This document shows positions 24,491-52,959 of a DNA stretch of 64,000 nucleotides, one piece after another. Source of the DNA: Eledone cirrhosa (lineage: Eukaryota); the NCBI GenBank assembly GCA_964016885.1, contig OZ024740.1, forward strand, positions 141,856,001 through 141,920,000, in the 5' to 3' direction. The notes below the pieces were generated by a model. It was not told the DNA's origin and did not search any database. It saw only the letters and a list, made by a program, of their open reading frames with translations. Position 1 is the stretch's first letter, and the number at the start of each line of letters is the position of its first letter. Position numbers and translations under genes: made by a program.

Positions 24491-24523
24491 TCTACACACA
24501 ATTGTCTGTGTGAGATAAGGTAC

Positions 24524-24571
24524 CTGACCATAGTCTTGTATGTCTGTGACAGCCTTCGCCACTTTCCAGAG
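24524..24571 (-). CDS. Candidate 48-nt host exon (LWKVAKAVTDIQDYGQ)
   Basis: ttttcag|CTC...CAG|gtacct; phase 0-0, compatible with 17579-17759; unique island between simple repeats. Confidence 0.25.
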
Positions 24572-24897
24572 CTGAAAATCGAATTTTTTTAACTGCAGCA
24601 GATAAAATTAAAATCACTTTGTTGTAGCCATGACAACCACAGCAGCTCCACATTCTCTGAGACAGCCTGGCGTTATTTCTCTGTGATGATAGAGAAGTAT
24701 TGGTTGGCGATGTTCATAGTGATGGTGGTGGTGGTGCTGGTTGTAGTGGAGGTTGTAGTTATAGTGGTGCTGGGCTGTTGTGTTGGTGGTTGTAGTAGCG
24801 GTGTTTGTAGTTATAGTGATGCAGGATTGTAGTGTTGGTGGTCATGATAGTGATGGATGTAGTTATGGTGCTAGTTGTCCTGGGCTTTACTACTAGT

Positions 24898-25460
24898 GGT
24901 TGTGGTGCTATTGTGGTTGCAGTTATAGTGGTACTGGGCTGTAGTGTAGGTGGTTGTGGTGGTTGTGGTGCTATTGTGGTTGCAGTTATAGTGGTACTGG
25001 GCTGTAGTGTAGGTGGTTGTGGTGGTTGTGGTGCTATTGTGGTTGCAGTTATAGTGGTACTGGGCTGTAGTGTAGGTGGTTGTGGTGGTTGTGGTGCTAT
25101 TGTGGTTGCAGTTATAGTGGTACTGGGCTGTAGTGTAGGTGGTTGTGGTGGTTGTGGTGGTGCTATTGTGGTTGTAGTTAAGGTTATAGTGGTACTGGGC
25201 TGCAGTGTAGGTGGTTGTGGTGGTGGCTGCAGTTGTAGTTAAGCTTATAGTGGTACTGGGCTGTAGTGTACGTGGTTGTGCTGGTGCTATTGTGGTTGTA
25301 TTTAAGGTTATAGTGGTACTGAGCTGTAGTGTGGGTGTTTGTGGTGGTGGTGTTGGTGGTTGTAGTTGTGGTACTAGTTGTACTGGGCTGTAGTGTAGGT
25401 AGTTGTGGTGGTGGTGGTTGTAGTTGTGGTGCTAGCTGTACTGGAATGTAGTGTTGATGG
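24898..25460. repeat. 63-bp GGT/GTA-rich minisatellite (4 near-perfect copies, then decaying)
   Basis: TGTGGTGCTATTGTGGTTGCAGTTATAGTGGTACTGGGCTGTAGTGTAGG at 24901, 24964, 25027 and 25090. Confidence 0.9.
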
Positions 25461-26138
25461 TTGTGGTGGCTGTAGTTGTAGTTATAGTACTAGTGATACT
25501 GAGTGTAGGGTCTTGTCGTAGTGTTTTGATGGTAAGGGAGTTGGAGTTGTATTGGTGGTGGTTGTGGTAGTGGTGATGTGTGATGTTGTGGTAGAGGCTA
25601 TGGTGATAGCAGTGTTGTTGGTTGTAGTAGTGGAATTGAATATCGTTATGGGAGTGGCTATAGTGATAGTAAAATTGTTTGGACTATAGTGTTGGTAGTT
25701 TTAATAGTATTTAGTTTAGTTGTAGTGATTGTAGCGGTTGTTGTGATAGTGGTACTGAATTACAGTATTGGGGGTTATAGCAGCGATTTTAATTGTTGTG
25801 GTTGTGGTGATATGGAGACAGTTTGAGCTATAACGATAGCGATTCTCGCGGCAACGGTGTTATGTATTATTGTAGTGGTGATTATGCTGATTGTAGTATT
25901 GGCAGTTATGTTAGTGGTGTTGAGTATTTTTGTAGTGGCTACTATGATGAGAGTAGTGTTGGTAGTTGTGTTAGTGGTGTTGAGTATTGTTGTGGTGGTG
26001 GCTGCCGTCATATTGAGAGAGTGTGGGGGTGTAGAGTTAGTGGCAGTAGTTTTACTAAAAGCAAAGGTTGAAGTGACGGCTGTTGTTAACGTAGTAGTAA
26101 CATCTGTAATACACGTTAATATTCTGTAATCCCAGGAC

Positions 26139-28606: not shown

Positions 28607-28800
28607 ATAGGAACGAGTAGGACCCCGACGGCTGAGCTCAAGCCGTTTGGACGGCTAATTCGGGTCCAGAATTAGCTGTCGAAACGGCTTGAGCTCAGCC
28701 GTCGGGGTCCTACTCGTTCCTATTACCCACTCTACTACCCTAAGTATTGAGTACTTTGGTGCGTTATGGTCCACCTGGTTCCTTACCACATTTCTTCCGT
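28607..28800 (+). mobile_element. Hairpin+tail element E5: 117-bp palindrome with the 3' half of a hammerhead + ~77-nt tail
   Basis: 28607-28723 is palindromic. Right arm reads [helix II]-GAAA-CGGCT tgagctc AGCCG-TC^-GGGGTCC. Tail GAGTACTTT at 28749-28757; (TA)n on both sides. Confidence 0.8.
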
Positions 28801-29016: not shown

Positions 29017-29050
<34 letters not shown>

Positions 29051-29079
29051 TTGTCTTGAAAGACTTATTTTTCAGTGAC

Positions 29080-29340
29080 TTCTCAATCAGCCGAGACAAA
29101 CCTACATTTGGCGCAAAATCAATTTTTAACATTCACATGACCTCTACCGACCAATCAAAATTGTTTTGACCACAAGAATTTTTGCAACACGAATTGGCGC
29201 GAAACTTATTTTAATACATCTGGAGCCACTTTTTTCACATAAAAAAGGTAGAATTTCCAAAACTAATCAGATTAGAGCAAACATCACGGGCGCTCTATCT
29301 CAAAATTATTTTTGAAAAGCATTAGAAATGCGCAACCGGT
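29080..29340. promoter_or_regulatory. Candidate promoter (E2F-like sites, CCAAT box, CHR-like motif)
   Basis: TTTGGCGC 29107-29114, CCAAT 29151-29155, TTGGCGCGAAA 29194-29204 and TTTGAA 29311-29316 in a non-repetitive island. Confidence 0.35.
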
Positions 29341-29490
29341 AAAAACTTAAAACCAAAACTGAATACTAACCAATACTATTACTAATTTTTACTTATTCCT
29401 AATTAAACTATTTTTCACTGGGAAAAATTTGTCAGCATTTTCTTTTCCTTTTACCAATATATATATATATATATATATGTATATGTGTGT

Positions 29491-29564
<74 letters not shown>

Positions 29565-29731
29565 AATAACCCCCCCCCCCAAAAAAATATATATAAATGT
29601 ACTACGTCTGCATTTGGATAAAAAGGTTCACAATATAATGTTCATATTGGACAACTATAAATTATATGAGGAGAGCACAGCGATTTGAGAACAAATAAAG
29701 AAAAAAATATAGAAAAGAAATATATATTTTC

Positions 29732-32700
29732 ATGAATGTATATTTCATTCATCAAAATGAAATATACATTGAGCGGATGAAAAGAAAAACCAAAAGCAAT
29801 GAGTCGCCGGAAAATGAGTATATGATTGTGCACGGGCTTTCATTTCAGCGTTCGTATACCTATCCCACTCCTTGCCAACCGCTGTATACCTATCTCACTC
29901 CATGCCAACCACTGTATACCTATCTCACTCCATGCCAACCACTGTATACCTATCTCACTCCATGCCAACCGCTGTATACCTATCTCACTCCATGCCAACC
30001 GCTGTATACCTATCTCACTCCATGCCAACCACTGTATACCTATCTCACTCCATGCCAACCGCTCTATACCTATCTCACTCCATGCCAACCGCTGTATACC
30101 TATCTCACTCCATGCCAACCGCTCTATACCTATCTCACTCCATGCCAACCGCTGTATACCTATCCCACTCCATGCCAACCACTGTATACCTATCTCACTC
30201 CATGCCAACCGCTCTATACCTATCTCTCTCCATGCCAACCACTGTATACCTATCTCACTCCATGCCAACCACTGTATACCTATCTCACTCCATGCCAACC
30301 ACTGTATACCTATCTCACTCCATGCCAACCGCTGTATACCTATCTCACTCCATGCCAACCACTGTATACCTATCTCACTCCATGCCAACCACTGTATACC
30401 TATCTCACTCCATGCCAACCGCTGTATACCTATCCCACTCCATGCCAACCACTGTATACCTATCTCACTCCTTGCCAACCACTGTATACCTATCTCACTC
30501 CATGCCAACCACTGTATACCTATCTCACTCCATGCCAACCGCTCTATACCTATCTCACTCCATGCCAACCGCTGTATACCTATCTCACTCCATGCCAACC
30601 ACTCTATACCTATCTCACTCCATGCCAACCGCTGTATACCTATCTCACTCCATGCCAACCACTCTATACCTATCTCACTCCATGCCAACCGCTGTATACC
30701 TATCTCACTCCATGCCAACCGCTGTATACCTATCTCTCTCCCTGCCAACCACTGTATACCTATCTCACTCCATGCCAACCACTGTATACCTATCTCACTC
30801 CATGCCAACCACTGTATACCTATCTCACTCCATGCCAACCACTGTATACCTATCTCACTCCATGCCAACCGCTGTATACCTATCTCTCTCCCTGCCAACC
30901 ACTGTATACCTATCTCACTCCATGCCAACCACTGTATACCTATCTCACTCCATGCCAACCACTGTATACCTATCTCACTCCATGCCAACCACTGTATACC
31001 TATCTCACTCCATGCCAACCGCTGTATACCTATCTCACTCCATGCCAACCGCTGTATACCTATCTCACTCCATGCCAACCGCTGTATACCTATCTCACTC
31101 CATGCCAACCGCTGTATACCTATCTCACTCCATGCCAACCGCTGTATACCTATCTCACTCCATGCCAACCGCTGTATACCTATCTCTCTCCATGCCAACC
31201 ACTGTATACCTATCTCACTCCATGCCAACCACTGTATACCTATCTCACTCCATGCCAACCGCTCTATACCTATCTCACTCCATGCCAACCGCTCTATACC
31301 TATCTCTCTCCATGCCAACCACTGTATACCTATCTCACTCCATGCCAACCACTGTATACCTATCTCTCTCCATGCCAACCACTGTATACCTATCTCACTC
31401 CATGCCAACCACTGTATACCTATCTCACTCCATGCCAACCACTGTATACCTATCTCACTCCATGCCAACCGCTCTATACCTATCTCACTCCATGCCAACC
31501 GCTGTATACCTATCTCACTCCATGCCAACCACTCTATACCTATCTCACTCCATGCCAACCGCTGTATACCTATCTCACTCCATGCCAACCACTCTATACC
31601 TATCTCACTCCATGCCAACCGCTCTATACCTATCTCACTCCATGCCAACCGCTGTATACCTATCTCACTCCATGCCAACCGCTGTATACCTATCTCACTC
31701 CATGCCAACCGCTGTATACCTATCTCTCTCCATGCCAACCACTGTATACCTATCTCACTCCATGCCAACCGCTGTATACCTATCTCACTCCATGCCAACC
31801 GCTGTATACCTATCTCACTCCATGCCAACCGCTCTATTCCTATCTCACTCCATGCCAACCGCTGTATACCTATCTCACTCCATGCCAACCACTGTATACC
31901 TATCTCACTCCATGCCAACCGCTCTATACCTATCTCTCTCCATGCCAACCACTGTATACCTATCTCACTCCATGCCAACCATTGTATACCTATCTCACTC
32001 CATGCCAACCACTGTATACCTATCTCACTCCATGCCAACCGCTCTATACCTATCTCACTCCATGCCAACCGCTGTATACCTATCTCACTCCATGCCAACC
32101 ACTCTATATCTATCTCACTCCATGCCAACCGCTGTATACCTATCTCACTCCATGCCAACCACTCTATACCTATCTCACTCCATGCCAACCGCTGTATACC
32201 TATCTCACTCCATGCCAACCGCTGTATACCTATCTCTCTCCATGCCAACCACTGTATACCTATCTCACTCCATGCCAACCACTGTATACCTATCTCACTC
32301 CATGCCAACCACTGTATACCTATCTCACTCCATGCCAACCACTGTATACCTATCTCACTCCATGCCAACCGCTGTATACCTATCCTACTCCATGCCAACC
32401 GCTGTATACCTATCTCACTCCATGCCAACCGCTGTATACCTATCTCACTCCATGCCAACCGCTGTATACCTATCTCACTCCATGCCAACCGCTGTATACC
32501 TATCTCACTCCTTGCCAACCGCTGTATACCTATCTCACTCCTTGCCAACCGCTGTATACCTATCTCACTCCATGCCAACGGCTGTATACCTATCTCACTC
32601 CATGCCAACCGCTGTATACCTATCTCACTCCTTGCCAACCGCTGTATACCTATCTCACTCCATGCCAACCGCTGTATACCTATCTCACTCCTTGCCAACC

Positions 32701-35700
32701 GCTGTATACCTATCTCACTCCTTGCCAACCGCTGTATACCTATCTCACTCCTTGCCAACCGCTGTATACCTATCTCTCTCCATGCCAACCGCTGTATACC
32801 TATCTCACTCCTTGCCAACGGCTGTATACCTATCTCACTCCTTGCCAACCGCTGTATACCTATGTCACTCCTTGCCAACCACTGTATACCTATCTCACTC
32901 CTTGCCAACCGCTGTATACCTATCTCACTCCATGCCAACCGCTCTATACCTATCTCACTCCATGCCAACCGCTGTATACCTATCTCACTCCTTGCCAACC
33001 GCTGTATACCTATCTCACTCCTTGCCAACCGCTGTATACCTATCTCACTCCTTGCCAACCGCTGTACACCTATCTCACTCCTTGCCAACCGCTGTATACC
33101 TATCTCACTCCATGCCAACCACTGTATACCTATCTCACTCCATGCCAACCGCTGTATACCTATCTCACTCCATGCCAACCGCTGTATACCTATCTCACTC
33201 CATGCCAACTGCTCTATACCTATCTCACTCCATGCCAACCGCTGTATACCTATCTCACTCCATGCCAACCGCTGTATACCTATCTCACTCCTTGCCAACC
33301 GCTGTATACCTATCTCACTCCATGCCAACCGCTGTATACCTATCTCACTCCTTGCCAACCGCTGTATACCTATCTCACACCTTGCCAACCGCTCTATACC
33401 TATCTCACTCCTTGCCAACCACTGTATACCTATCTCACTCCTTGCCAACCACTGTATACCTATCTCACTCCATGCCAACCGCTGTATACCTATCTCACTC
33501 CTTGCCAACCGCTGTATACCTATCTCACTCCTTGCCAACCGCTGTATACCTATCTCACTCCTTGCCAACCGCTGTATACCTATCTCACTCCATGCCAACT
33601 GCTGTATACCTATCTCACTCCTTGCCAACCGCTGTATACCTATCTCACTCCATGCCAACCGCTGTATACCTATCTCACTCCATGCCAACCGCTGTATACC
33701 TATCTCACTCCTTGCCAACCGCTGTATACCTATCTCACTCCATGCCAACCGCTGTATACCTATCTCACTCCTTGCCAACCGCTGTATACCTATCTCACTC
33801 CATGCCAACCGCTGTATACCTATCTCACTCCATGCCAACCGCTGTATACCTATCTCACTCCTTGCCAACCACTGTATACCTATCTCACACCATGCCAACC
33901 GCTGTATACCTATCTCACTCCATGCCAACTGCTCTATACCTATCTCACTCCATGCCAACCGCTGTATACCTATCTCACTCCATGCCAACCGCTGTATACC
34001 TATCTCACTCCTTGCCAACCGCTGTATACCTATCTCACTCCATGCCAACCGCTGTATACCTATCTCACTCCATGCCAACCACTGTATACCTATCTCACTC
34101 CATGCCAACCGCTGTATACCTATCTCACTCCTTGCCAACCGCTGTATACCTATCTCACTCCATGCCAACCGCTGTATACCTATCTCACTCCTTGCCAACC
34201 GCTGTATACCTATCTCACTCCATGCCAACCGCTGTATACCTATCTCACTCCTTGCCAACCGCTGTATACCTATCTCACTCCATGCCAACCGCTGTATACC
34301 TATCTCACTCCTTGCCAACCGCTGTATACCTATCTCACTCCATGCCAACCGCTGTATACCTATCTCACTCCTTGCCAACCACTGTATAGCTATCTCACTC
34401 CATGCCAACCGCTGTATACCTATCTCACTCCTTGCCAACCACTGTATACCTATCTCACTCCATCCCAACCGCTGTATACCTATCTCACTCCATGCCAACC
34501 GCTGTATACCTATCTCACTCCATGCCAACCGCTGTATACCTATCTCACTCCTTGCCAACCACTGTATACCTATCTCACTCCATGCCAACCGCTGTATACC
34601 TATCTCACTCCTTGCCAACCACTGTATACCTATCTCACTCCTTGCCAACCACTGTATACCTATCTCACTCCATGCCAACCGCTGTATACCTATCTCACTC
34701 CTTGCCAACCGCTGTATACCTATCTCACTCCATGCCAACCACTGTATACCTATCTCACTCCATGCCAACCCCTGTATACCTATCTCACTCCTTGCCAACG
34801 GCTGTATACCTATCTCACTCCATGCCAACCTCTGTATACCTATCTCACTCCATGCCAACCGCTGTATACCTATCTCACTCCTTGCCAACCGCTCTATACC
34901 TATCTCACTCCTTGCCAACGGCTGTATACCTATCTCTCTCCATGCCAACCTCTGTATACCTATCTCACTCCATCCCAACCGCTGTATACCTATCTCACTC
35001 CATGCCAACCGCTCTATACCTATCTCACTCCTTGCCAACGGCTGTATACCTATCTCTCTCCATGCCAACCTCTGTATACCTATCTCACTCCATGCCAACC
35101 GCTCTATACCTATCTCACTCCTTGCCAACCGCTGTATACCTATCTCTCTCCATGCCAACCTCTGTATACCTATCTCACTCCATCCCAACCGCTGTATACC
35201 TATCTCTCTCCATGCCAACCACTGTATACCTATCTCACTCCATGCCAACCGCTGTATACCTATCTCACTCCTTGCCAACCACTGTATACCTATCTCACTC
35301 CTTGCCAACCACTGTATACCTATCTCACTCCATGCCAACCGCTCTATACCTATCTCACTCCTTGCCAACCGCTGTATACCTATCTCACTCCATCCCAACC
35401 GCTGTATACCTATCTCACTCCATGCCAACCACTGTATACCTATCTCACTCCTTGCCAACCGCTGTATACCTATTTCACTCCATGCCAACGGCTGTATACC
35501 TATCTCACTCCTTGCCAACCGCTGTATACCTATCTCACTCCTTGCCAACCGCTCTATACCTATCTCACTCAATGCCAACCGCTTTATACCTATCTCACTC
35601 CATCCCAACCACTGTATACCTATCTCACTCCATGCCAACCACTGTATACCTATCTCACTCCATGCCAACCGCTGTATACCTATCTCACTCCTTTCCAACC

Positions 35701-38700
35701 GTTGTATACCTATCTCACTCCTTGCCAACCGTTGTATACCTATCTCACTCCTTGCCAACCTCTGTATACCTATCTCACTCCTTGCCAACCACTGTATACC
35801 TATCTCACTCCTTGCCAACCACTGTATACCTATCTCACTCCATGCCAACCACTGTATACCTATCTCACTCCATGCCAACCGCTGTATACCTATCTCACTC
35901 CTTGCCAACCACTGTATACCTATCTCACTCCTTGCCAACCACTGTATACCTATCTCACTCCATGCCAACCGCTGTATACCTATCTCACTCCTTGCCAACC
36001 ACTGTATACCTATCTCACTCCATGCCAACCACTGTATACCTATCTCACTCCATGCCAACCGCTGTATACCTATCTCACTCCTTGCCAACCACTGTATACC
36101 TATCTCACTCCTTGCCAACCACTGTATACCTATCTCACTCCTTGCCAACCACTGTATACCTATCTCACTCCATGCCAACCGCTGTATACCTATCTCACTC
36201 CATGCCAACCACTGTATACCTATCTCACTCCTTCCCAACCACTGTATACCTATCTCACTCCATGGCAACCACTGTATACCTATCTCACTCCATGCCAACC
36301 GCTCTATACCTATCTCACTCCTTGCCAACCACTGTATACCTATCTCACTCCTTGCCAACCACTGTATACCTATCTCACTCCATGCCAACCGCTCTATACC
36401 TATCTCACTCCTTGCCAACCGTTGTATACTATCTCACTCCTTGCCAACCACTGTATACCTATCTCACTCCTTGCCAACCACTGTATACCTATCTCACTCC
36501 TTGCCAACCACTGTATACCTATCTCACTCCATGCCAACCACTGTATACCTATCTCTCTCCATGCCAACGGCTGTATACCTATCTCACTCCTTGCCAACCG
36601 CTCTATACCTATCTCACTCCATGCCAACCACTCTATACCTATCTCACTCCATGCCAACCACTCTATACCTATCTCACTCCATGCCAACCACTCTATATCT
36701 ATCTCACTCCATGCCAACCGCTGTATACCTATCTCACTCCATGCCAACCACTCTATACCTATCTCACTCCATGCCAACCGCTGTATACCTATCCTACTCC
36801 ATGCCAACCGCTGTATACCTATCTCACTCCATGCCAACCGCTGTATACCTATCTCACTCCATGCCAACCGCTGTATACCTATCTCACTCCATGCCAACCA
36901 CTGTATACCTATCTCACTCCTTGCCAACCGCTGTATACCTATCTCACTCCTTGCCAACCGCTGTATACCTATCTCTCTCCTTGCCAACCGCTGTATACCT
37001 ATCTCACTCCTTGCCAACCGCTGTATACCTATCTCACTCCTTGCCAACCGCTGTATACCTATCTCTCTCCTTGCCAACCGCTGTATACCTATCTCACTCC
37101 TTGCCAACCGCTGTATACCTATCTCTCTCCTTGCCAACCGCTGTATACCTATCTCACTCCTTGCCAACCGCTGTATACCTATCTCACTCCTTGCCAACCG
37201 CTGTATACCTATCTCTCTCCTTGCCAACCGCTGTATACCTATCTCACTCCTTGCCAACCGCTGTATACCTATCTCTCTCCTTGCCAACCGCTGTATACCT
37301 ATCTCACTCCTTGCCAACCGCTGTATACCTATCTCACTCCTTGCCAACCGCTGTATACCTATCTCACTCCTTGCCAACCGCTGTATACCTATCTCACTCC
37401 TTGCCAACCGCTGTATACCTATCTCACTCCATGCCAACCGCTGTATACCTATCTCACTCCTTGCCAACCGCTGTATACCTATCTCACACCTTGCCAACCG
37501 CTCTATACCTATCTCACTCCTTGCCAACCACTGTATACCTATCTCGCTCCTTGCCAACCACTGTATACCTATCTCACTCCATGCCAACCGCTCTATACCT
37601 ATCTCTCTCCATGCCAACCGCTGTATACCTATCTCACTCCTTGCCAACGGCTGTATACCTATCTCACTCTTGCCAACCGCTGTATACCTATGTCACTCCT
37701 TGCCAACCACTGTATACCTATCTCACTCCTTGCCAACCGCTGTATACCTATCTCACTCCATGCCAACCGCTCTATACCTATCTCACTCCATGCCAACCGC
37801 TGTATACCTATCTCACTCCTTGCCAACCGCTGTATACCTATCTCACTCCTTGCCAACCGCTGTATACCTATCTCACTCCTTGCCAACCGCTGTATACCTA
37901 TCTCACTCCATGCCAACCGCTGTATACCTATCTCACTCCTTGCCAACCGCTGTATACCTATCTCACTCCTTGCCAACCGCTGTATACCTATCTCACTCCT
38001 TGCCAACCGCTGTATACCTATCTCACTCCATGCCAACCGCTCTATACCTATCTCACTCCTTGCCAACCACTGTATACCTATCTCACTCCTTGCCAACCAC
38101 TGTATACCTATCTCACTCCATGCCAACCGCTGTATACCTATCTCACTCCTTGCCAACCGCTGTATACCTATCTCACTCCTTGCCAACCGCTGTATACCTA
38201 TCTCACTCCATGCCAACCGCTCTATACCTATCTCACTCCTTGCCAACCACTGTATACCTATCTCACTCCTTGCCAACCACTGTATACCTATCTCACTCCA
38301 TGCCAACCGCTGTATACCTATCTCACTCCTTGCCAACCACTGTATACCTATCTCACTCCATGCCAACCACTGTATACCTATCTCACTCCATGCCAACCGC
38401 TGTATACCTATCTCACTCCATGCCAACCGCTTTATACCTATCTCACTCCATGCCAACCGCTGTATACCTATCTCACTCCTTGCCAACCGCTGTATACCTA
38501 TCTCACTCCTTGCCAACCACTGTATACCTATCTCACTCCATGCCAACCACTGTATACCTATCTCACTCCATGCCAACCGCTGTATACCTATCTCACTCCA
38601 TGCCAACCGCTTTATACCTATCTCACTCCATGCCAACCACTGTATACCTATCTCACTCCATGCCAACCACTGTATACATATCTCACTCCATGCCAACCGC

Positions 38701-41700
38701 TGTATACCTATCTCACTCCATGCCAACCGCTTTATACCTATCTCACTCCATGCCAACCGCTGTATACATATCTCACTCCATGCCAACCGCTGTATACCTA
38801 TCTCACTCCTTGCCAACCGTTGTATACCTATCTCACTCCTTGCCAACCACTGTATACCTATCTCACTCCTTGCCAACCACTGTATACCTATCTCACTCCT
38901 TGCCAACCACTGTATACCTATCTCACTCCATGCCAACCACTGTATACCTATCTCTCTCCATGCCAACCGCTGTATACCTATCTCACTCCTTGCCAACCGC
39001 TCTATACCTATCTCACTCCTTGCCAACCACTGTATACCTATCTCACTCCTTGCCAACCACTGTATACCTATCTCACTCCATGCCAACCACTGTATACCTA
39101 TCTCACTCCATGCCAACCGCTGTATACCTATCTCACTCCTTGCCAACCGTTGTATACCTATCTCACTCCTTGCCAACCACTGTATACCTATCTCACTCCT
39201 TGCCAACCACTGTATACCTATCTCACTCCTTGCCAACCACTGTATACCTATCTCACTCCATGCCAACCACTGTATACCTATCTCTCTCCATGCCAACCGC
39301 TGTATACCTATCTCACTCCTTGCCAACCGCTCTATACCTATCTCACTCCATGCCAACCACTCTATACCTATCTCACTCCATGCCAACCACTGTATACTTA
39401 TCTCACTCCATGCCAACCACTGTATACCTATCTCACTCCTTGCCAACCACTGTATACCTATCTCACTCCTTGCCAACCACTGTATACCTATCTCACTCCA
39501 TGCCAACCACTGTATACCTATCTCTCTCCATGCCAACCGCTGTATACCTATCTCACTCCTTGCCAACCGCTCTATACCTATCTCACTCCATGCCAACCAC
39601 TCTATACCTATCTCACTCCATGCCAACCACTGTATACTTATCTCACTCCATGCCAACCACTGTATACCTATCTCACTCCTTGCCAACCACTGTATACCTA
39701 TCTCACTCCATGCCAACCACTGTATACCTATCTCACTCCATGCCAACCGCTGTATACCTATCTCACTCCTTGCCAACCGTTGTATACCTATCTCACTCCT
39801 TGCCAACCACTGTATACCTATCTCACTCCTTGCCAACCACTGTATACCTATCTCACTCCTTGCCAACCACTGTATACCTATCTCACTCCATGCCAACCAC
39901 TGTATACCTATCTCTCTCCATGCCAACCGCTGTATACCTATCTCACTCCTTGCCAACCGCTCTATACCTATCTCACTCCATGCCAACCACTCTATACCTA
40001 TCTCACTCCTTGCCAACCACTGTATACCTATCTCACTCCATGCCAACCGCTGTATACCTATCTCACTCCATGCCAACCGCTGTATACCTATCTCACTCCA
40101 TGCCAACCGCTGTATACCTATCTCACTCCTTGCCAACCGCTGTATACCTATCTCACTCCTTGCCAACCGCTGTATACCTATCTCACTCCATGCCAACGGC
40201 TGTATACCTATCTCACTCCATGCCAACCGCTGAATACCTATCTCACTCCTTGCCAACCGCTGTATACCTATCTCACTCCATGCCAACCGCTGTATACCTA
40301 TCTCACTCCTTGCCAACCGCTGTATACCTATCTCACTCCATGCCAACCGCTGTATACCTATCTCACTCCATGCCAACCGCTGTATACCTATCTCACTCCT
40401 TGCCAACCGCTGTATACCTATCTCACTCCTTGCCAACCGCTGTATACCTATCTCACTCCATGCCAACGGCTGTATACCTATCTCACTCCATGCCAACGGC
40501 TGAATACCTATCTCACTCCTTGCCAACCGCTGTATACCTATCTCACTCCATGCCAACCGCTGTATACCTATCTCACTCCTTGCCAACCGCTGTATACCTA
40601 TCTCACTCCATGCCAACCGCTGTATACCTATCTCACTCCTTGCCAACCGCTGTATACCTATCTCACACCTTGCCAACCGCTCTATACCTATCTCTCTCCA
40701 TGCCAACCACTGTATACCTATCTCACTCCTTGCCAACCGTTGTATACCTATCTCACTCCTTGCCAACCACTGTATACCTATCTCACTCCTTGCCAACCAC
40801 TGTATACCTATCTCACTCCATGCCAACCGCTCTATACCTATCTCTCTCCATGCCAACCGCTGTATACCTATCTCACTCCTTGCCAACGGCTGTATACCTA
40901 TCTCACTCCTTGCCAACCGCTGTATACCTATGTCACTCCTTGCCAACCACTGTATACCTATCTCACTCCTTGCCAACCACTGTATACCTATCTCACTCCT
41001 TGCCAACCACTGTATACCTATCTCACTCCATGCCAACCGCTCTATACCTATCTCTCTCCATGCCAACCGCTGTATACCTATCTCACTCCTTGCCAACGGC
41101 TGTATACCTATCTCACTCCTTGCCAACCGCTGTATACCTATGTCACTCCTTGCCAACCACTGTATACCTATCTCACTCCTTGCCAACCACTGTATACCTA
41201 TCTCACTCCTTGCCAACCGCTGTATACCTATCTCACTCCTTGCCAACCGCTGTATACCTATCTCATTCCATGCCAACTGCTCTATACCTATCTCACTCCA
41301 TGCCAACCGCTGTATACCTATCTCACTCCTTGCCAACGGCTGTATACCTATCTCTCTCCATGCCAACCTCTGTATACCTATCTCACTCCATGCCAACCCC
41401 TGTATACCTATCTCACTCCTTGCCAACGGCTGTATACCTATCTCACTCCATGCCAACCACTGTATACCTATCTCACTCCATGCCAACCGCTGTATACCTA
41501 TCTCACTCCTTGCCAACCGTTGTATACCTATTTCACTCCATGCCAACGGCTGTATACCTATCTCACTCCTTGCCAACCGCTGTATACCTATCTCACTCCT
41601 TGCCAACCGCTCTATACCTATCTCACTCCTTGCCAACCACTGTATACCTATCTCACTCCTTGCCAACCACTGTATACCTATCTCACTCCATGCCAACCAC

Positions 41701-44700
41701 TGTATACCTATCTCACTCCATGCCAACCGCTGTATACCTATCTCACTCCTTGCCAACCGTTGTATACCTATCTCACTCCTTGCCAACCGCTGTATACCTA
41801 TCTCACTCCTTGCCAACCACTGTATACCTATCTCACTCCATGCCAACCACTGTATACCTATGTCACTCCATGCCAACCGCTGTATACCTATCTCACTCCT
41901 TGCCAACCGTTGTATACCTATCTCACTCCTTGCCAACCGCTGTATACCTATCTCACTCCTTGCCAACCACTGTATACCTATCTCACTCCATGCCAACCAC
42001 TGTATACCTATCTCACTCCATGCCAACCGCTGTATACCTATCTCACTCCTTGCCAACCGTTGTATACCTATCTCACTCCTTGCCAACCACTGTATACCTA
42101 TCTCACTCCTTGCCAACCACTGTATACCTATCTCACTCCTTGCCAACCACTGTATACCTATCTCACTCCATGCCAACCACTGTATACCTATCTCTCTCCA
42201 TGCCAACCGCTGTATACCTATCTCACTCCTTGCCAACCGCTCTATACCTATCTCACTCCTTGCCAACCACTGTATACCTATCTCACTCCTTGCCAACCAC
42301 TGTATACCTATCTCACTCCATGCCAACCACTGTATACCTATCTCACTCCATGCCAACCGCTGTATACCTATGTCACTCCTTGCCAACCGTTGTATACCTA
42401 TCTCACTCCTTGCCAACCACTGTATACCTATCTCACTCCTTGCCAACCACTGTATACCTATCTCACTCCTTGCCAACCACTGTATACCTATCTCACTCCA
42501 TGCCAACCACTGTATACCTATCTCTCTCCATGCCAACCGCTGTATACCTATCTCACTCCTTGCCAACCGCTCTATACCTATCTCACTCCATGCCAACCAC
42601 TCTATATCTATCTCACTCCATGCCAACCGCTGTATACCTATCTCACTCCATGCCAACCACTCTATACCTATCTCACTCCATGCCAACCGCTGTATACCTA
42701 TCTCACTCCATGCCAACCGCTGTATACCTATCTCTCTCCATGCCAACCACTGTATACCTATCTCACTCCATGCCAACCACTGTATACCTATCTCACTCCA
42801 TGCCAACCACTGTATACTTATCTCACTCCATGCCAACCGCTGTATACCTATCTCACTCCATGCCAACCGCTGTATACCTATCCTACTCCATGCCAACCGC
42901 TGTATACCTATCTCACTCCATGCCAACCGCTGTATACCTATCTCACTCCATGCCAACCGCTGTATACCTATCTCACTCCATGCCAACCGCTGTATACCTA
43001 TCTCACTCCTTGCCAACCGCTGTATACCTATCTCACTCCTTGCCAACCGCTGTATACCTATCTCACTCCATGCCAACGGCTGTATACCTATCTCACTCCA
43101 TGCCAACCGCTGAATACCTATCTCACTCCTTGCCAACCGCTGTATACCTATCTCACTCCATGCCAACCGCTGTATACCTATCTCACTCCTTGCCAACCGC
43201 TGTATACCTATCTCACTCCATGCCAACCGCTGTATACCTATCTCACTCCTTGCCAACCGCTGTATACCTATCTCACACCTTGCCAACCGCTCTATACCTA
43301 TCTCACTCCTTGCCAACCACTGTATACCTATCTCACTCCTTGCCAACCACTGTATACCTATCTCACTCCATGCCAACCGCTCTATACCTATCTCTCTCCA
43401 TGCCAACCGCTGTATACCTATCTCACTCCTTGCCAACCGCTGTATACCTATGTCACTCCTTGCCAACCACTGTATACCTATCTCACTCCTTGCCAACCGC
43501 TGTATACCTATCTCACTCCATGCCAACCGCTCTATACCTATCTCACTCCATGCCAACCGCTGTATACCTATCTCACTCCTTGCCAACCGCTGTATACCTA
43601 TCTCACTCCTTGCCAACCGCTGTATACCTATCTCACTCCTTGCCAACCGCTGTATACCTATCTCACTCCTTGCCAACCGCTGTATACCTATCTCACTCCT
43701 TGCCAACCGCTGTATACCTATCTCACTCCATGCCAACTGCTCTATACCTATCTCACTCCATGCCAACCGCTGTATACCTATCTCACTCCTTGCCACCGGC
43801 TGTATACCTATCTCTCTCCATGCCAACCTCTGTATACCTATCTCACTCCATGCCAACCCCTGTATACCTATCTCACTCCTTGCCAACGGCTGTATACCTA
43901 TCTCACTCCATGCCAACCACTGTATACCTATCTCACTCCATGCCAACCGCTCTATACCTATCTCACTCCTTGCCAACCACTGTATACCTATCTCACTCCA
44001 TGCCAACCGCTGTATACCTATCTCACTCCATGCCAACCACTGTATACCTATCTCACTCCATGCCAACCACTGTATACCTATCTCACTCCATGCCAACCGC
44101 TGTATACCTATCTCACTCCATGCCAACCACTGTATACCTATCTCACTCCATGCCAACCGCTGTATACCTATCTCACTCCATGCCAACCACTGTATACCTA
44201 TCTCACTCCTTGCCAACCGCTGTATACCTATCTCACTCCATGCCAACCACTGTATACCTATCTCACTCCATGCCAACCGCTGTATACCTATCTCACTCCA
44301 TGCCAACCACTGTATACCTATCGCACTCCATGCCAACCGCTGTATACCTATCTCACTCCATGCCAACCACTGTATACCTATCTCACTCCATGCCAACCGC
44401 TGTATACCTATCTCACTCCATGCCAACCACTGTATACCTATCTCACTCCATGCCAACCGCTGTATACCTATCTCACTCCATGCCAACCACTGTATACCTA
44501 TCTCACTCCTTGCCAACCGCTGTATACCTATGTCACTCCATGCCAACCACTGTATACCTATGTCACTCCATGCCAACCGCTGTATACCTATGTCACTCCA
44601 TGCCAACCACTGTATACCTATCTCACTCCATGCCAACCGCTGTATACCTATCTCACTCCATGCCAACCACTGTATACCTATCTCACTCCTTGCCAACCGC

Positions 44701-47700
44701 TGTATACCTATGTCACTCCATGCCAACCACTGTATACCTATGTCACTCCATGCCAACCGCTGTATACCTATGTCACTCCATGCCAACCACTGTATACCTA
44801 TCTCACTCCATGCCAACCGCTGTATACCTATCTCACTCCTTGCCAACCGCTGTATACCTATCTCACTCCATGCCAACCACTGTATACCTATCTCACTCCT
44901 TGCCAACCACTGTATACCTATCTCACTCCATGCCAACCGCTGTATACCTATCTCACTCCTTGCCAACCGCTCTATACCTATCTCACTCCTTGCCAACCGC
45001 TGTATACCTATCTCACTCCTTGCCAACCGCTGTATACCTATCTCACTCCTTGCCAACCGCTGTATACCTATCTCACTCCTTGCCAACCGCTGTATACCTA
45101 TCTCACTCCATGCCAACCGCTGTATACCTATCTCACTCCTTGCCAACCGCTGTATACCTATCTCACTCCTTGCCAACCGCTGTATACCTATCTCACTCCT
45201 TGCCAACCGCTCTATACCTATCTCACTCCTTGCCAACCACTGTATACCTATCTCACTCCATGCCAACCGCTGTATACCTATCTCACTCCATGCCAACCGC
45301 TGTATACCTATCTCACTCCATGCCAACCGCTGTATACCTATCTCACTCCATGCCAACCACTGTATACCTATCTCACTCCATGCCAACCGCTGTATACCTA
45401 TCTCACTCCTTGCCAACCGCTGTATACCTATCTCACTCCATGCCAACCACTGTATACCTATCTCACTCCATGCCAACCGCTGTATACCTATCTCACTCCT
45501 TGCCAACCGCTGTATACCTATGTCACTCCTTGCCAACCACTGTATACCTATCTCACTCCTTGCCAACCGCTCTATACCTATCTCACTCCATGCCAACCGC
45601 TCTATACCTATCTCACTCCTTGCCAACCACTGTATACCTATCTCACTCCATGCCAACCACTGTATACCTATCTCACTCCATGCCAACCACTGTATACCTA
45701 TCTCACTCCATGCCAACCACTGTATACCTATCTCACTCCATGCCAACCACTGTATACCTATCTCACTCCATGCCAACCGCTGTATACCTATCTCACTCCT
45801 TGCCAACCGCTGTATACCTATGTCACTCCTTGCCAACCACTGTATACCTATCTCACTCCTTGCCAACCGCTCTATACCTATCTCACTCCATGCCAACCGC
45901 TCTATACCTATCTCACTCCTTGCCAACCACTGTATACCTATCTCACTCCATGCCAACCGCTGTATACCTATCTCACTCCTTGCCAACCGCTGTATACCTA
46001 TCTCACTCCATGCCAACCACTGTATACCTATCTCACTCCATGCCAACCGCTGTATACCTATCTCACTCCTTGCCAACCGCTGTATACCTATGTCACTCCT
46101 TGCCAACCACTGTATACCTATCTCACTCCTTGCCAACCGCTCTATACCTATCTCACTCCATGCCAACCGCTCTATACCTATCTCACTCCTTGCCAACCAC
46201 TGTATACCTATCTCACTCCATGCCAACCACTGTATACCTATCTCACTCCATGCCAACCACTGTATACCTATCTCACTCCATGCCAACCACTGTATACCTA
46301 TCTCACTCCATGCCAACCACTGTATACCTATCTCACTCCATGCCAACCGCTGTATACCTATCTCACTCCTTGCCAACCGCTGTATACCTATGTCACTCCT
46401 TGCCAACCACTGTATACCTATCTCACTCCTTGCCAACCGCTCTATACCTATCTCACTCCATGCCAACCGCTCTATACCTATCTCACTCCTTGCCAACCAC
46501 TGTATACCTATCTCACTCCATGCCAACCGCTGTATACCTATCTCACTCCATGCCAACCACTGTATACCTATCTCACTCCATGCCAACCACTGTATACCTA
46601 TCTCACTCCATGCCAACCACTGTATACCTATCTCACTCCATGCCAACCACTGTATACCTATCTCACTCCATGCCAACCGCTGTATACCTATCTCACTCCA
46701 TGCCAACCGCTGTATACCTATCTCACTCCTTGCCAACCGCTGTATACCTATCTCACTCCTTGCCAACCACTGTATACCTATCTCACTCCTTGCCAACCGC
46801 TGTATACCTATCTCACTCCTTGCCAACCGCTCTATACCTATCTCACTCCTTGCCAACCACTGTATACCTATCTCACTCCATGCCAACCGCTGTATACCTA
46901 TCTCACTCCATGCCAACCGCTCTATACCTATCTCACTCCATGCCAACCGCTGTATACCTATCTCACTCCATGCCAACCACTGTATACCTATCTCACTCCT
47001 TGCCAACCGCTGTACACCTATCTCACTCCTTGCCAACCGCTGTATACCTATCTCACTCCTTGCCAACCGCTGTATACCTATCTCACTCCATGCCAACCAC
47101 TGTATACCTATCTCACTCCTTGCCAACCGCTCTATACCTATCTCACTCCATGCCAACCGCTGTATACCTATCTCACTCCATGCCAACCACTGTATACCTA
47201 TCTCACTCCTTGCCAACCGCTGTATACCTATCTCACTCCATGCCAACCACTGTATACCTATCTCACTCCATGCCAACCGCTGTATACCTATCTCACTCCA
47301 TGCCAACCACTGTATACCTATCTCACTCCTTGCCAACCGCTGTATACCTATCTCACTCCTTGCCAACCGCTCTATACCTATCTCACTCCATGCCAACCAC
47401 TGTATACCTATCTCACTCCATGCCAACCGCTCTATACCTATCTCACTCCTTGCCAACCACTGTATACCTATCTCACTCCATGCCAACCGCTGTATACCTA
47501 TCTCACTCCATGCCAACCGCTCTATACCTATCTCTCTCCATGCCAACCGCTGTATACCTATCTCACTCCATGCCAACCACTGTATACCTATCTCACTCCA
47601 TGCCAACCACTGTATACCTATCTCACTCCATGCCAACCACTGTATACCTATCTCACTCCATGCCAACCGCTGTATACCTATCTCACTCCATGCCAACCAC

Positions 47701-50700
47701 TGTATACCTATCTCACTCCATGCCAACCACTGTATACCTATCTCACTCCATGCCAACCACTGTATACCTATCTCACTCCATGCCAACCGCTGTATACCTA
47801 TCTCTCTCCATGCCAACCCCTGTATACCTATCTCACTCCATGCCAACCACTGTATACCTATCTCACTCCATGCCAACCGCTCTATACCTATCTCTCTCCA
47901 TGCCAACCCCTGTATACCTATCTCACTCCATGCCAACCGCTGTATACCTATCTCACTCCATGCTAACCGCTGTATACCTATCTCACTCCATGCCAACCAC
48001 TGTATACCTATCTCTCTCCATCCCAACCGCTGTATACCTATCTCACTCCATGCCAACCGCTGTATACCTATCTCACTCCATGCCAACCGCTGTATACCTA
48101 TCTCACTCCATGCCAACCGCTGTATACCTATCTCACTCCATGCCAACCGCTGTATACCTATCTCTCTCCATGCCAACCACTGTATACCCATCTCTCTCCA
48201 TCCCAACCGCTGTATACCTATCTCACTCCATGCCAACCGCTGTATACCTGTCTCACTCCATGCCAACCGCTGTATACCTATCTCTCTCCATGCCAACCCC
48301 TGTATACCTATCTCACTCCATGCCAACCACTGTATACCTATCTCACTGCATGCCAACCGCTCTATACCTATCTCTCTCCATGCCAACCCCTGTATACCTA
48401 TCTCACTCCATGCCAACCGCTGTATACCTATCTCACTCCATGCCAACCGCTGTATACCTATCTCACTCCATGCCAACCGCTGTATACCTATCTCTCTCCA
48501 TGCCAACCACTGTATACCTATCTCTCTCCATCCCAACTGCTGTATACCTATCTCACTCCATGCCAACCGCTGTATACCTATCTCACTCCATGCCAACCGC
48601 TGTATACCTATCTCACTCCATGCCAACCGCTGTATACCTATCTCACTCCATGCCAACCGCTGTATACCTATCTCTCTCCATGCCAACCACTGTATACCTA
48701 TCTCTCTCCATCCCAACCGCTGTATACCTATCTCACTCCATGCCAACCGCTGTATACCTATCTCACTCCATGCCAACCGCTGTATACCTATCTCACTCCA
48801 TGCCAACCGCTGTACACCTATCTCACTCCATGCCAACCGCTGTATACCTATCTCTCTCCATGCCAACCACTGTATACCTATCTCTCTCCATGCCAACCGC
48901 TGTATACCTATCTCACTCCATGCCAACCGCTGTATACCTATCTCTCTCCATGCCAACCCCTGTATACCTATCTCACTCCATGCCAACCGCTGTATACCTA
49001 TCTCACTCCATGCCAACCGCTGTATACCTATCTCTCTCCATGCCAACCCCTGTATACCTATCTCACTCCATGCCAACCGCTGTATACCTATCTCTCTCCA
49101 TCCCAACCGCTGTATACCTATCTCACTCCATGCCAACCGCTGTATACCTATCTCACTCCATGCCAACCGCTGTATACCTATCTCTCTCCATGCCAACCAC
49201 TGTATACCTATCTCTCTCCATCCCAACCGCTGTATACCTATCTCACTCCATGCCAACCGCTGTATACCTATCTCTCTCCATGCCAACGGCTGTATACCTA
49301 TCTCACTCCATGCCAACCGCTGTATACCTATCTCACTCCATGCCAACCACTGTATACCTATCTCACTCCATGCCAACCGCTGTATACCTATCTCACTCCA
49401 TGCCAACCGCTGTATACCTATCTCACTCCATGCCAACCACTGTATACCTATCTCACTCCATGCCAACCGCTGTATACCTATCTCTCTCCATGCCAACGGC
49501 TGTATACCTATCTCACTCCATGCCAACCGCTGTATACCTATCTCACTCCATGCCAACCGCTGTATACCTATCTCACTCCATGCCAACCGCTGTATACCTA
49601 TCTCACTCCATGCCAACCGCTGTATACCTATCTCTCTCCATGCCAACGGCTGTATACCTATCTCACTCCATGCCAACCGCTGTATACCTATCTCACTCCA
49701 TGCCAACCACTGTATACCTATCTCACTCCATGCCAACCGCTGTATACCTATCTCACTCCATGCCAACCGCTGTATACCTATCTCTCTCCATGCCAACCAC
49801 TGTATACCTATCTCACTCCATGCCAACCACTGTATACCTATCTCACTCCATGCCAACCACTGTATACCTATCTCACTCCATGCCAACCGCTGTATACCTA
49901 TCTCACTCCATGCCAACCGCTGTATACCTATCTCTCTCCATGCCAACGGCTGTATACCTATCTCACTCCATGCCAACCGCTGTATACCTATCTCACTCCA
50001 TGCCAACCACTGTATACCTATCTCACTCCATGCCAACCGCTGTATACCTATCTCTCTCCTTGCCAACCACTGTATACCTATCTCACTCCATGCCAACCGC
50101 TCTATACCTATCTCTCTCCATGCCAACCACTGTATACCTATCTCACTCCATGCCAACCACTGTATACCTATCTCACTCCTTGCCAACCACTGTATACCTA
50201 TCTCACTCCATGCCAACCACTGTATACCTATCTCACTCCATGCCAACCACTGTATACCTATCTCACTCCTTGCCAACCACTGTATACCTATCTCACTCCA
50301 TGCCAACCACTGTATACCTATCTCACTCCTTGCCAACCACTGTATACCTATCTCACTCCTTGCCAACCGCTCTATACCTATCTCACTCCTTGCCAACCGC
50401 TGTATACCTATCTCACTCCTTGCCAACCACTGTATACCTATCTCACTCCTTGCCAACCGCTGTATACCTATCTCACTCCATGCCAACCACTGTATACCTA
50501 TCTCACTCCTTGCCAACCGCTGTATACCTATCTCACTCCTTGCCAACCACTGTATACCTATCTCACTCCTTGCCAACCACTGTATACCTATCTCACTCCA
50601 TGCCAACCACTGTATACCTATGTCACTCCTTGCCAACCACTGTATACCTATCTCACTCCTTGCCAACCACTGTATAGCTATCTCACTCCTTGCCAACCGC

Positions 50701-51476
50701 TCTATACCTATCTCACTCCTTGCCAACCGCTGTATACCTATCTCACTCCTTGCCAACCACTGTATACCTATCTCACTCCATGCCAACCACTGTATACCTA
50801 TCTCACTCCATGCCAACCGCTGTATACCTATCTCACTCCTTGCCAACCGCTGTATACCTATCTCACTCCATGCCAACCACTGTATACCTATCTCACTCCA
50901 TGCCAACCACTGTATACCTATCTCACTCCATGCCAACCACTGTATACCTATCTCACTCCATGCCAACCGCTGTATACCTATCTCACTCCTTGCCAACCAC
51001 TGTATACCTATCTCACTCCATGCCAACCACTGTATACCTATCTCACTCCATGCCAACCGCTGTATACCTATCTCACTCCTTGCCAACCGCTGTATACCTA
51101 TCTCACTCCATGCCAACCACTGTATACCTATCTCACTCCATGCCAACCACTGTATACCTATCTAACTCCATGCCAACCACTGTATACCTATCTCACTCCA
51201 TGCCAACCGCTGTATACCTATCTCACTCCTTGCCAACCACTGTATACCTATCTCACTCCATGCCAACCGCTGTATACCTATCTCACTCCTTGCCAACCAC
51301 TGTATACCTATCTCACTCCTTGCCAACCACTGTATACCTATCTCACTCCATGCCAACCGCTGTATACCTATCTCACTCCTTGCCAACCACTGTATACCTA
51401 TCTCACTCCATGCCATCCGCAAGTAGAAGGTGCTCATCTTAGACGTGTCAAATCTGATCTTTCTAAGCGCTGTTAA
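29732..51476 (+). CDS. Hypothetical giant (YTYLTPCQPL)n repeat protein; needs two frameshift corrections and has one in-frame TAA (47964-47966)
   Basis: ATG 29732 and acceptor AG 29847-29848 lead into the frame where the commonest array variants are synonymous; the frame closes at TAA 51474-51476. Confidence 0.25.
29854..51420 (+). repeat. 30-bp tandem satellite, ~720 units, consensus RCTGTATACCTATCTCACTCCWTGCCAACC
   Basis: Strict 30-nt period with only two 1-nt deletions (~36429, ~37669). Confidence 0.99.
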
Positions 51477-52400
51477 AAGCGTTTCTCATGTCTAAATTCA
51501 CCATGAGACGAGGTGACAAAGGAGGGCGTGTGCGCAATGAAGTGTCTGATCGTAAGGGCTGACGCCTCACATCCGCCTTTAACCTCTACTCCGAGCTAGA
51601 CAGGGCATAACTCCTCGCTTAAGCCTACCATGACTGATCTGCAGGCTATCTAGTTTGCAAGTCATCAAAAGATGTTGCCCACTGCATAAGTCGGATGTCT
51701 CTGTCATTGTTCAATGCAGTCAGATTGGCTGAGAAGCAAAGATCATGCGCATGTTAAGGAGGTCGGCTAGAAGACGATTTTGTTAGAGCAGTAATTGACC
51801 GAGGCAAACGTACTCCTATCTCAGTGGTGTATAGTGAGGTTAGATCATGTAGATGGCTGGGACGAAGGCCATCTACTCCGCCACAGCTGCTGAAGGATTT
51901 CTGGACAGCACCAACATCTTCACTGGAAGCGGTCAAGGAGATGTCACTGGCGGGGTCTTGAAAGTGCCTGATATTGACCGGGGTGACTGGATGTTTAAGG
52001 CAAAGCCAGTCAAGACATCTGGTATGGGCCTGAGAAGCCAGTGTAAGCAACGCATCAGAAACGACGCTTCAATCAGTTTACAATGAACTTGTCTATGGAG
52101 ATATTTCATGCAGTCGGACGACAGGAGAGAAAGGAGAGGGTAGTCAGAGCGGGTAGTAGAAAGAAGCGATGCTGAATTTGAGCCCCGAAGACAGAGAGGG
52201 GACCGAAACCTCCCAACCCACCAGGATCCCAAGTGCGAGTTTAGCAAAACTGAGTAGCTTGTTTAAATCTTGCGGATTGTTGGTATCAAGCGCCTGATCG
52301 ATGGACGACGTTACCGCTTCAGTCGCGAGAATGGGGGCAGCTTTGGGGAATAATAACCTGAGGTGGGAGATCACTATCAAGATCTCGTCCGGGCTGAGGG
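51421..52400 (-). mobile_element. Degraded CRE-clade-like non-LTR RT fragment
   Basis: Minus: SFSSCGGVDGLRPSHLHDL, FSANLTAL..DIR, LGVEVKGGCEA, DMRNAFNS; many stops; ends at the satellite edge. Confidence 0.65.
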
Positions 52401-52959
52401 GGTGTTAGATAACCAGTGTTTACCTGTGGCGTCGAGAGGGTTAAACAGCGCGGATACTGACACCAGTGCAGGGGTTTCGACGCACATCTAGTGAGTTTAA
52501 CGCGAGAAAGGTGGACAAATTGTAATATTTGGAATATTCCCTTCTCTTCTTCCGACTATTCGACGTGACACATGAGTGACACTGCTCGACACTTTGCTCA
52601 GTGGAAGCTGAGGAGCGAATACATGTGGAGGAGCCCTGGGCATTAGTATTTTCAAAGCAACATTATATTGCGCTATGTCCTGCAGCGATGAAACAACGAT
52701 TCTTCAAATAGTTTCCATCCTCCTAAAAATATGAGTCTTTAAATCCTATAAAACAGTATATCTGGTATTAAAAAAAGGCACTTCAAATATACTTTACTCT
52801 CTTTTCAAAGCATCAGTGGTAAGAAACTCTCAGGAGAGCTGGACAGCAGAAGGTCTTCAGAGAAGAAATCCCCTTGAAGCAAATGTTTCGTGAAATAACG
52901 TTTCTTTAAATTATTTGCATCCTCCTGGTAGCAAGGTTGTAAAGAAAACAATATTTCTG

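Follow-up and report, generated by a model that had tools for sequence, protein, structure and literature searches.

Long minisatellites and midisatellites at a single locus represent a known class of tandem repeats. Mussel foot protein 1, with its decapeptide, and proteins with Cys/Pro/Gln-rich repeats of the cornifin or keratin-associated type contain short repeats with abundant Tyr, Pro, Thr or Cys. For the spidroin repeats MaSp1, TuSp1 and AcSp1, Ka/Ks is 0.19–0.27 from published values (available sections of PMC3563967). A further case is orf143 in VPS9D1-AS1, a de novo ORF that gained length from tandem repeats and the translation of which was shown (available sections of PMC12888051).

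Analysis of a window of 64,000 nucleotides of the Eledone cirrhosa genome (contig OZ024740.1; positions below are those of the window) showed the presence of a long tandem array:

29854–51420, + strand: tandem array of 719 units of 30 bases with sharp edges, reading (LYTYLTPCQP)n in one + frame

The commonest unit is CTGTATACCTATCTCACTCCATGCCAACCG; the array has a period of 30, 719 copies with 95% matches and a length of 21.6 kb. In the genome of ~3 Gb, all exact matches of the unit (349/349), all matches with silent positions left free (635/635) and all matches with up to three mismatches (717/717) lie inside the array, and no paralogue of the unit was found elsewhere in these whole-genome searches. 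The sequence-only reading had named many arrays in unrelated contexts as an argument against its coding interpretation; the unit proved to be confined to one locus. In a protein-level genome search, all 139 matches were in the array, but distant paralogues are barely constrained by it, since only 150 of 51,981 candidates were scored. Runs of variant units recur, representing blocks of several units duplicated within the array, and common variants are mostly unlinked (4/6 pairs with P > 0.3). The array corresponds to long minisatellites, with head-to-tail units of 10–100 bases over many kb, a confined unit and block turnover, and shares with them units of tens of bases, an extent of tens of kb and homogeneity of ~95%. 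Unlike the chromosome-end minisatellites of this genome, it lies in the interior of a 443-Mb chromosome. In two of three read runs of one sample, available as contigs and behaving like DNA, the left joint of the array is bridged by a contig without difference.

At the protein level, the array resembles mussel foot protein 1 and the cornifin or keratin-associated proteins in a 10-residue or short repeat rich in Tyr, Pro, Thr or Cys, and differs from them in the lack of a sequence match, the absence of Lys and ~10 times more units. Arg is scarce in the repeat. With spidroins, as described in the available sections of PMC3563967 and PMC5765351, it has in common homogenised repeats, Ka < Ks (Ka/Ks 0.11 here) and many kb in one stretch. 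Similar to orf143, an open frame enters an expanding array from non-coding flanks; unlike orf143, as far as the available sections of PMC12888051 describe it, the array is far longer and is known from DNA sequence alone. No homologue was found by shared words with queries of 110 to 5,985 residues. Among 150 of 452 HMMER matches listed, only period-10 look-alikes without a shared peptide were present, the best identity of a recurring 10-mer being 6/10, in 4 of these 150; the named proteins among ten look-alikes looked up are bacterial, algal, fly and fish. The best Atlas look-alike (score 0.88) and one with the Cornifin family (score 0.86) are leads only. Pfam gave no matches on the first 200 residues, and a literature search for the peptide and unit sequences found nothing.

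Substitutions were counted in 714 full units, and 37 distinct ones were found. Most frequent are A>T at place 21 of the unit (262 copies), G>A at place 30 (261 copies) and G>C at place 3 (79 copies). All three leave the LYTYLTPCQP peptide unchanged but alter amino acids in each of the remaining three open frames, as the sequence-only reading had proposed. Besides the other open frames that it had seen, there is one on the − strand, the fourth in all. It had also correctly named T>S as the main replacement (60 copies, the fourth commonest variant) and described the unit's CpG, where the silent G>A greatly outnumbers C>T (P>L; 6 copies). The rarer silent variants that it had listed are all present; one of them, C>T at place 15, is always accompanied by T>C at place 14 (3/3 copies), the codon then being Pro. 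About 20 rare replacements had been estimated by eye: 23 of the 37 distinct variants are replacements or stops and 14 are silent, but for several replacements 'rare' does not apply (P>R with 22 copies, L>V with 18 and C>S with 12), and the recurring replacements include P>R, C>S and L>P. The peptide is changed in 129/714 units. No recurrent frameshift or stop was found among the units of the array.

Between units, Ks is 0.163, Ka 0.0175 and Ka/Ks 0.11 in the LYTYLTPCQP frame. The copy-weighted silent-site skew in this frame is genuine: tested as the best of the four open frames, it has permutation P 0.002–0.022, and P 0.009–0.024 under a same-base null. In this respect the earlier description of a 21.6-kb satellite with coding-like variation is borne out. 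Just three variants contribute 602 of 653 silent copies; excluding places 3, 21 and 30, there are 29 silent vs 146 replacement copies. When each variant is counted once, 14/37 are silent vs 23/90 possible, and the synonymous excess that the sequence-only reading had expected after collapsing of duplicated variants is not significant (best-of-frames P 0.07–0.08), nor is it with the mutation-preserving, same-base null (P 0.12–0.27; best-of-frames P 0.14–0.27). Recurrent replacements are no milder than random changes (P 0.41). The silent share is 13/23 in recurrent variants vs 1/14 in singletons (Fisher P 0.004, post hoc). The skew remains without the three hot places (6/16, P 0.027) and without CpG and 10-base-register variants (8/12, P 0.001; one frame, post hoc).

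Arrays of more than 9 kb with private units of 18–58 bases were found in 9 of 16 sampled 50-kb chromosome-end blocks of the same genome. Controls for silent skew were 11 chromosome-end arrays with 66 frames, the studied array being internal. A control whose 31-base unit is unable to maintain a reading frame showed Ka/Ks 0.08 with P 0.004 (log) and 0.002 (linear), and a control with a 58-base unit gave P 0.011 and 0.004, respectively, in a stop-containing frame. Log P of 0.011 or below was found in 3 of the 66 control frames vs ~0.7 expected, so the permutation null is somewhat lenient. The studied array is the most extreme of the 12, with log P 0.001 vs 0.004 in the best control and recurrent-variant P 0.001 vs 0.025; its skew is stronger than in 11/11 controls. 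The controls with 53-, 31- and 19-base units parsed poorly in this analysis. The studied array contains fewer indel variants than most long controls, although the indel/stop deficit is not significant (P 0.10–0.17) in comparison with the eight control arrays suitable for this count (3 of 11 parse badly).

On balance, the array is probably, though not securely, a giant non-coding minisatellite of a single locus. One locus, sharp edges, block duplications, repeat-derived flanks and many like-sized private arrays support this. The array likely grew in place, next to a truncated retroelement, from a 30-base seed that was unique; slippage, unequal exchange and conversion would have copied blocks of units, and three early variants may thereby have spread to 11–37% of units. 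By chance, all three would have hit four-fold third codon positions in one of the four open frames; scanning of many arrays would single out such a case. Points against a non-coding array are its extreme place among the 12 arrays, its Ka/Ks, no higher than that of spider silk repeats, the silent bias of recurrent variants, the skew surviving removal of the hot places and of CpG and 10-base-register variants, the absence of recurrent frameshifts and stops (a deficit not significant against controls), and an acceptor-like TTTCAG on the same strand. The latter belongs to the left flank:

29678–29788, no strand assigned: old AT-rich dispersed-repeat fragment, matching 12 other places at 77–95% and containing the ATG at 29732
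29765–29853, no strand assigned: short spacer, the sole genome match of which is itself
29839–29848, + strand: putative acceptor-like site ending in TTTCAG, 5 bases 5′ of the first unit and in phase 0 to the LYTYLTPCQP frame

The chance of such a site per 10-base window is from 0.4% (exact hexamer) to 4% (looser score). The dispersed-repeat fragment contains a 15-base hairpin with arms at 29735–29749 and 29756–29770 (by eye). The in-frame ATG at 29732 is missing in that register from 11 fetched copies of this repeat (by eye), and no signal peptide was found after it. A single-exon gene from this ATG to the TAA ending at 51476, as originally delimited, is unlikely, since its start codon belongs to a dispersed repeat and its C-terminal end is read from the antisense strand of a retroelement. 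The coding interpretation retains the skew and the single locus in its favour and loses the collapsed test and the single-exon form; a repeat exon reached by splicing, whether live or broken not long ago, is possible judging from the sequence.

A live giant exon, spliced at 29849 to an unseen upstream exon and encoding an (LYTYLTPCQP)n structural polymer, is considered unlikely. Its product would have ~6,000 residues up to an internal TAA, or ~7,200 (near 0.85 MDa) if the TAA is also an error, and the Tyr/Pro/Thr/Cys polymer would be cross-linked via Cys and Tyr. The copy-weighted skew with its Ka/Ks of 0.11, the acceptor-like site and the single locus argue for such an exon, but the replacements P>R, C>S and L>P are recurrent, the distinct-variant test is not significant and only period-10 look-alikes were found in place of a homologue. 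A crude scan for upstream signal-peptide exons also argues against it: one candidate, which is TG-repeat-like, was found vs 5, 1 and 9 in controls. The frame is further interrupted in the assembly by two frameshifts and one TAA, located where the sequence-only reading had seen them:

36428–36429, + strand: first one-base deletion, CC to C, frameshift in the assembly
37669–37670, + strand: second one-base deletion, CC to C, frameshift in the assembly
47964–47966, + strand: lone TAA (Gln codon, C>T) in the LYTYLTPCQP frame of one copy

These breaks count against a live exon, in which the frameshifts would have to stem from errors of the assembly or from a null allele; in its favour, all three are single-copy and each deletion removes one base from a CC pair, a common long-read consensus error. 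At the first deletion, the spanning contig listed for each of the three read runs of the sample carries C, and none shows the deletion; these contigs neither prove nor exclude an assembly error, because their depth is that of several like units and contigs drop rare variants. Unit variants at depth 9–12 do persist in the same read runs.

The right flank is represented by a mobile element:

51421–52812, − strand: decayed non-LTR retroelement fragment, 64–79% to other copies, with reverse-transcriptase motifs seen by eye

The fragment is broken inside the reverse-transcriptase region, precisely at the array edge, and Pfam gave no matches on its four frameshifted frames. Homology begins at 51421, with no unique coding DNA between the last unit and the retroelement; the final 18 codons and the stop at 51474–51476 are retroelement antisense. 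The lack of a non-repetitive C-terminal region and the only weak donor-like sites speak against a live exon. A lineage-specific gene, in which a 21.6-kb exon would encode an (LYTYLTPCQP)n polymer of 6,000–7,200 residues without homologue and with a stop borrowed from the antisense retroelement, is given a low probability.

The abrupt end of the retroelement, whose continuation did not turn up from position 24,000 to the left array edge, is also consistent with a recently broken repeat exon, homogenised while coding and later damaged, a reading to which we likewise attach little probability. One deletion would have removed the 3′ end of the gene with the 3′ half of the adjoining retroelement, after which stops, frameshifts and replacements would build up. 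The silent bias of the older (recurrent) variants, not seen in the newer (single) ones, the single-copy stop and frameshifts and the retained acceptor-like site agree with this, and dead repeat-protein genes exist (available sections of PMC5765351). However, other copies of this old retroelement likewise break off near the same point, singletons are expected to lack signs of selection under the live-gene and non-coding readings too, and neither a paralogue in the genome nor a homologue elsewhere was found; the silk pseudogene described in the available sections of PMC5765351 lost repeats and did not keep hundreds.

Another copy of the same retroelement contains its own 79-base array, showing that tandem arrays do arise from mobile elements in this genome. 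Derivation of the unit studied here from a mobile element or a simple repeat of 10 bases, with the skew produced by a codon-blind copying bias, is nevertheless very improbable. Compared with a profile of 24–25 retroelement copies (5–6 of 30 were omitted, as the stretch was not reached or they had their own array inside), the unit matched no better than shuffles (P 0.30–0.96), and derivation from the adjoining retroelement in either orientation was rejected. No dispersed copy of the unit exists in the genome; it was not found inside copies of a dispersed element, as in transposon-derived tandem repeats, and a Helentron-type carrier was rejected for the same reason. A 10-base origin is suggested by lag 10 as the best internal period (13/30, P 0.04, uncorrected for 15 lags) and by 7 of 11 variants with at least 5 copies, in which the new base equals that at a distance of 10 (P 0.016; post hoc, without CpG transitions), but the silent excess stays after removal of 10-base-register variants; as a trimer of a 10-base motif the unit is weakly explained and the skew unexplained.

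No cellular gene was found near the array among 239 unmasked ORFs of at least 75 aa over 464 kb (239 of 240 were scanned, one crossing the locus border), a screen by ORF and Pfam that short exons would escape. The matches are to RT, PIF1, GIY-YIG and an ND3-like piece; the GIY-YIG ORF also has a sub-threshold galactose-binding-like match.

If the array is non-coding, as we lean to believe, it belongs to the ordinary giant minisatellites and serves as a warning about silent-site skew: non-coding arrays can reach Ka/Ks of ~0.1 in their best frame, so a skew from few founder variants is weak evidence for a gene. If it is coding, it would give a novel biomaterial protein, rich in Tyr and Cys and ~0.85 MDa in size, and would be a clean example of a giant exon masked as a satellite and hidden from annotation. 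In that less probable case, a minisatellite would have been converted into, or preserved as, a simple-repeat structural protein among the largest of that type.

The sequence-only reading described a 21.6-kb array with two frameshifts and one TAA, and all of these were recovered in the window (positions 141,856,001–141,920,000 of contig OZ024740.1, chromosome C1, in the 3.0-Gb assembly GCA_964016885.1 of Eledone cirrhosa):

29854–51420: tandem array, period 30, 719 copies, 95% matches (Tandem Repeats Finder)
~36428 and ~37670: one-base losses in a CC pair, in two array units
47964–47966: TAA in one array unit
from 51421, − strand: old non-LTR retroelement homology

The array edges are sharp on both sides, and the left joint was bridged unchanged by a contig in two of three sequencing runs of one sample. 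The unit reads open in four of six frames. The 714 full units carry 37 distinct substitutions, and variant units form runs recurring as blocks. Occurrence in many arrays in unrelated contexts, named beforehand as evidence against coding, was not found: all 349 genome matches to an exact 26-mer of the unit, all 635 to the unit pattern with silent places free and all 717 to a 27-mer with ≤3 mismatches fall within this array, the last search detecting neither a second array nor a dispersed monomer in the assembly.

In the + strand frame reading (LYTYLTPCQP)n, silent changes make up 14 of the 37 distinct variants (23 of the 90 possible single changes are silent) and 653 of 799 variant copies. Between units, Ks is 0.163 and Ka 0.0175, a ratio of 0.11; the other open frames give 2.2–6.3. 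For spider silk repeats, values in PMC3563967 give ratios of 0.19–0.27. Permutation P values, taken for the best of the four open frames, were 0.002–0.018 weighted by copies and 0.08 unweighted; 0.002–0.022 and 0.07–0.08 when whole positions were moved; and 0.009–0.024 and 0.14–0.27 when the exact base change was kept. Accordingly, the dominance of silent variants claimed earlier holds for copies (weighted P 0.002–0.024), and the count of synonymous versus replacement variants loses its support when each variant is taken once (P 0.07–0.27). Three variants account for 602 of the 653 silent copies; with the three hot places removed, 29 silent copies stand against 146 replacement copies, and recurrent variants are still silent-skewed (6/16, P 0.027). 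Overall, 13 of 23 recurrent variants are silent versus 1 of 14 single-copy variants (P 0.004, post hoc). The 10-base substructure of the unit is weak and does not account for the silent excess, which persists (8/12 versus 15/61). The peptide is altered in 129 of 714 units, replacement copies including P>R (22), L>V (18) and C>S (12); recurrent replacements were not milder than random (P 0.41).

The same test was repeated on 11 chromosome-end arrays (66 frames) of this genome. Arrays longer than 9 kb, with private units of 18–58 bases, were found in nine of sixteen 50-kb blocks taken at chromosome ends, a sample in which scaffold ends are likely enriched for giant arrays. The best control P on the log-weighted statistic was 0.004, for a 31-base unit (Ka/Ks 0.08) that cannot keep frame and is poorly parsed; a 58-base unit, in a frame holding a stop, and an 18-base unit built on CAA each gave 0.011. 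Since three control frames lie at ≤0.011 versus about 0.7 expected among 66, the null is somewhat lenient. The 30-base array reached 0.001 on both the log and recurrent statistics, the best controls 0.004 and 0.025, respectively. Its skew is therefore the strongest of the 12, yet of a size approached by non-coding arrays. Frameshift-size indels in the array (2 single, 0 recurrent) are not significantly fewer (P 0.10 and 0.17) than in eight pooled controls (60 single and 25 recurrent, versus 393 and 302 substitutions). Among the sampled ends of C1–C5 and C7 (L134–L213), each that holds a giant array has a unit of its own, of 45, 18, 58, 19, 21, 53, 31 or 33 bases. Where C2 begins, the CAA-derived array of 18-base units shows recurrent indels in multiples of three only.

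The array is probably a non-coding minisatellite grown in place, the silent phase of three variants being a coincidence. A 30-base seed beside the truncated retroelement may have been duplicated and extended via slippage and unequal exchange; the three variants now at 11–37% would then be early ones that by chance are all silent in the same open frame. The single locus, block structure, repeat-derived flanks and many like arrays are the observed basis for this.

The ATG at 29732, with which the earlier frame opened, sits in a dispersed, AT-rich repeat that also occurs at 12 other places; by eye, none of 11 fetched copies has an ATG in the same register, and no signal peptide was seen in the 41 codons before the array. 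The unique spacer between this repeat and the array ends, 5 bases short of the first unit, in TTTCAG, a candidate splice acceptor of good shape; such a site is expected in 0.4–4% of local 10-base windows. Donor-like sites in the right flank are weak. The coding readings stay alive because the silent skew and the acceptor-like site are jointly rare. The array could be a live exon, its breaks being errors or a null allele, which we consider unlikely. A decaying exon, which lost its 3′ end in the same deletion that cut the retroelement, also seems improbable; such loss is possible, as silk pseudogenes show (PMC5765351).

Other left-flank elements include a foldback or MITE-like element at 28607–28723 (58-base arms, 95% complementary, 1 base between), with a relative in locus L020 (88% over 231 bases); a young high-copy repeat at 29050–29450 (40 scored matches at 98–99% identity, among 1,781 candidates); and, at 22726–26000, a 1.8-kb array derived from CCA, with higher-order units, and after it a GGT/GTT-rich stretch in the opposite orientation, with units of 52–63 bases.

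Because the − strand retroelement homology starts at 51421, the last 18 codons and stop of the earlier frame are, judged by homology, antisense retroelement DNA. The element, presumably CRE-like going by its RT motifs, stops short within the reverse-transcriptase region (read by eye); Pfam gave no hits on its frameshifted frames, and from 24,000 up to the array no continuation of the element was detected. Derivation of the unit from this element was rejected by comparison with it. Another copy of the family carries a 79-base × 14 tandem array that grew within its reading frame (L062 665–1766; C7, about 57,538,660–57,539,770). LINE-type RT and endonuclease frames lie at 6263–8497, 12371–15256 (open for 961 codons, RVT_1 and zf-RVT), 55872–58545 and 61209–63362.

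Around the array, ~61% of 464 kb is masked as repeat. No cellular gene was found there: the only hits among 239 unmasked ORFs, in a screen that would miss short exons, were domains of mobile elements and an ND3-like piece. The latter (L106 6363–6596, PF00507, E 4e-05) probably represents mitochondrial DNA copied into the nucleus, and PIF1 helicase pieces (L086 2184–3228) are likely a Helitron remnant. At C1:141799429–141802333, 7.1 perfect copies of a 311-base unit directly adjoin a further 2.2 perfect copies, apparently inverted, on their downstream side. Upstream of the array, a rough search for first exons encoding a signal peptide gave one candidate, versus 5, 1 and 9 in control directions. 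Word-based protein searches (queries of 110–5,985 residues) found no homologue, HMMER matches share a common 10-residue period and not the peptide, and the literature searched held no mention of the peptide or unit words.

The earlier coding interpretation is partly supported, by the weighted silent skew, the single locus and the acceptor-like site, and is opposed by the ATG in a dispersed repeat and the antisense retroelement tail; the weight given to each of the three readings is a matter of judgement, not computation. A young ORF lengthened by a tandem array is on record in PMC12888051, and there is a small chance that the array encodes a giant, so far unknown structural protein.
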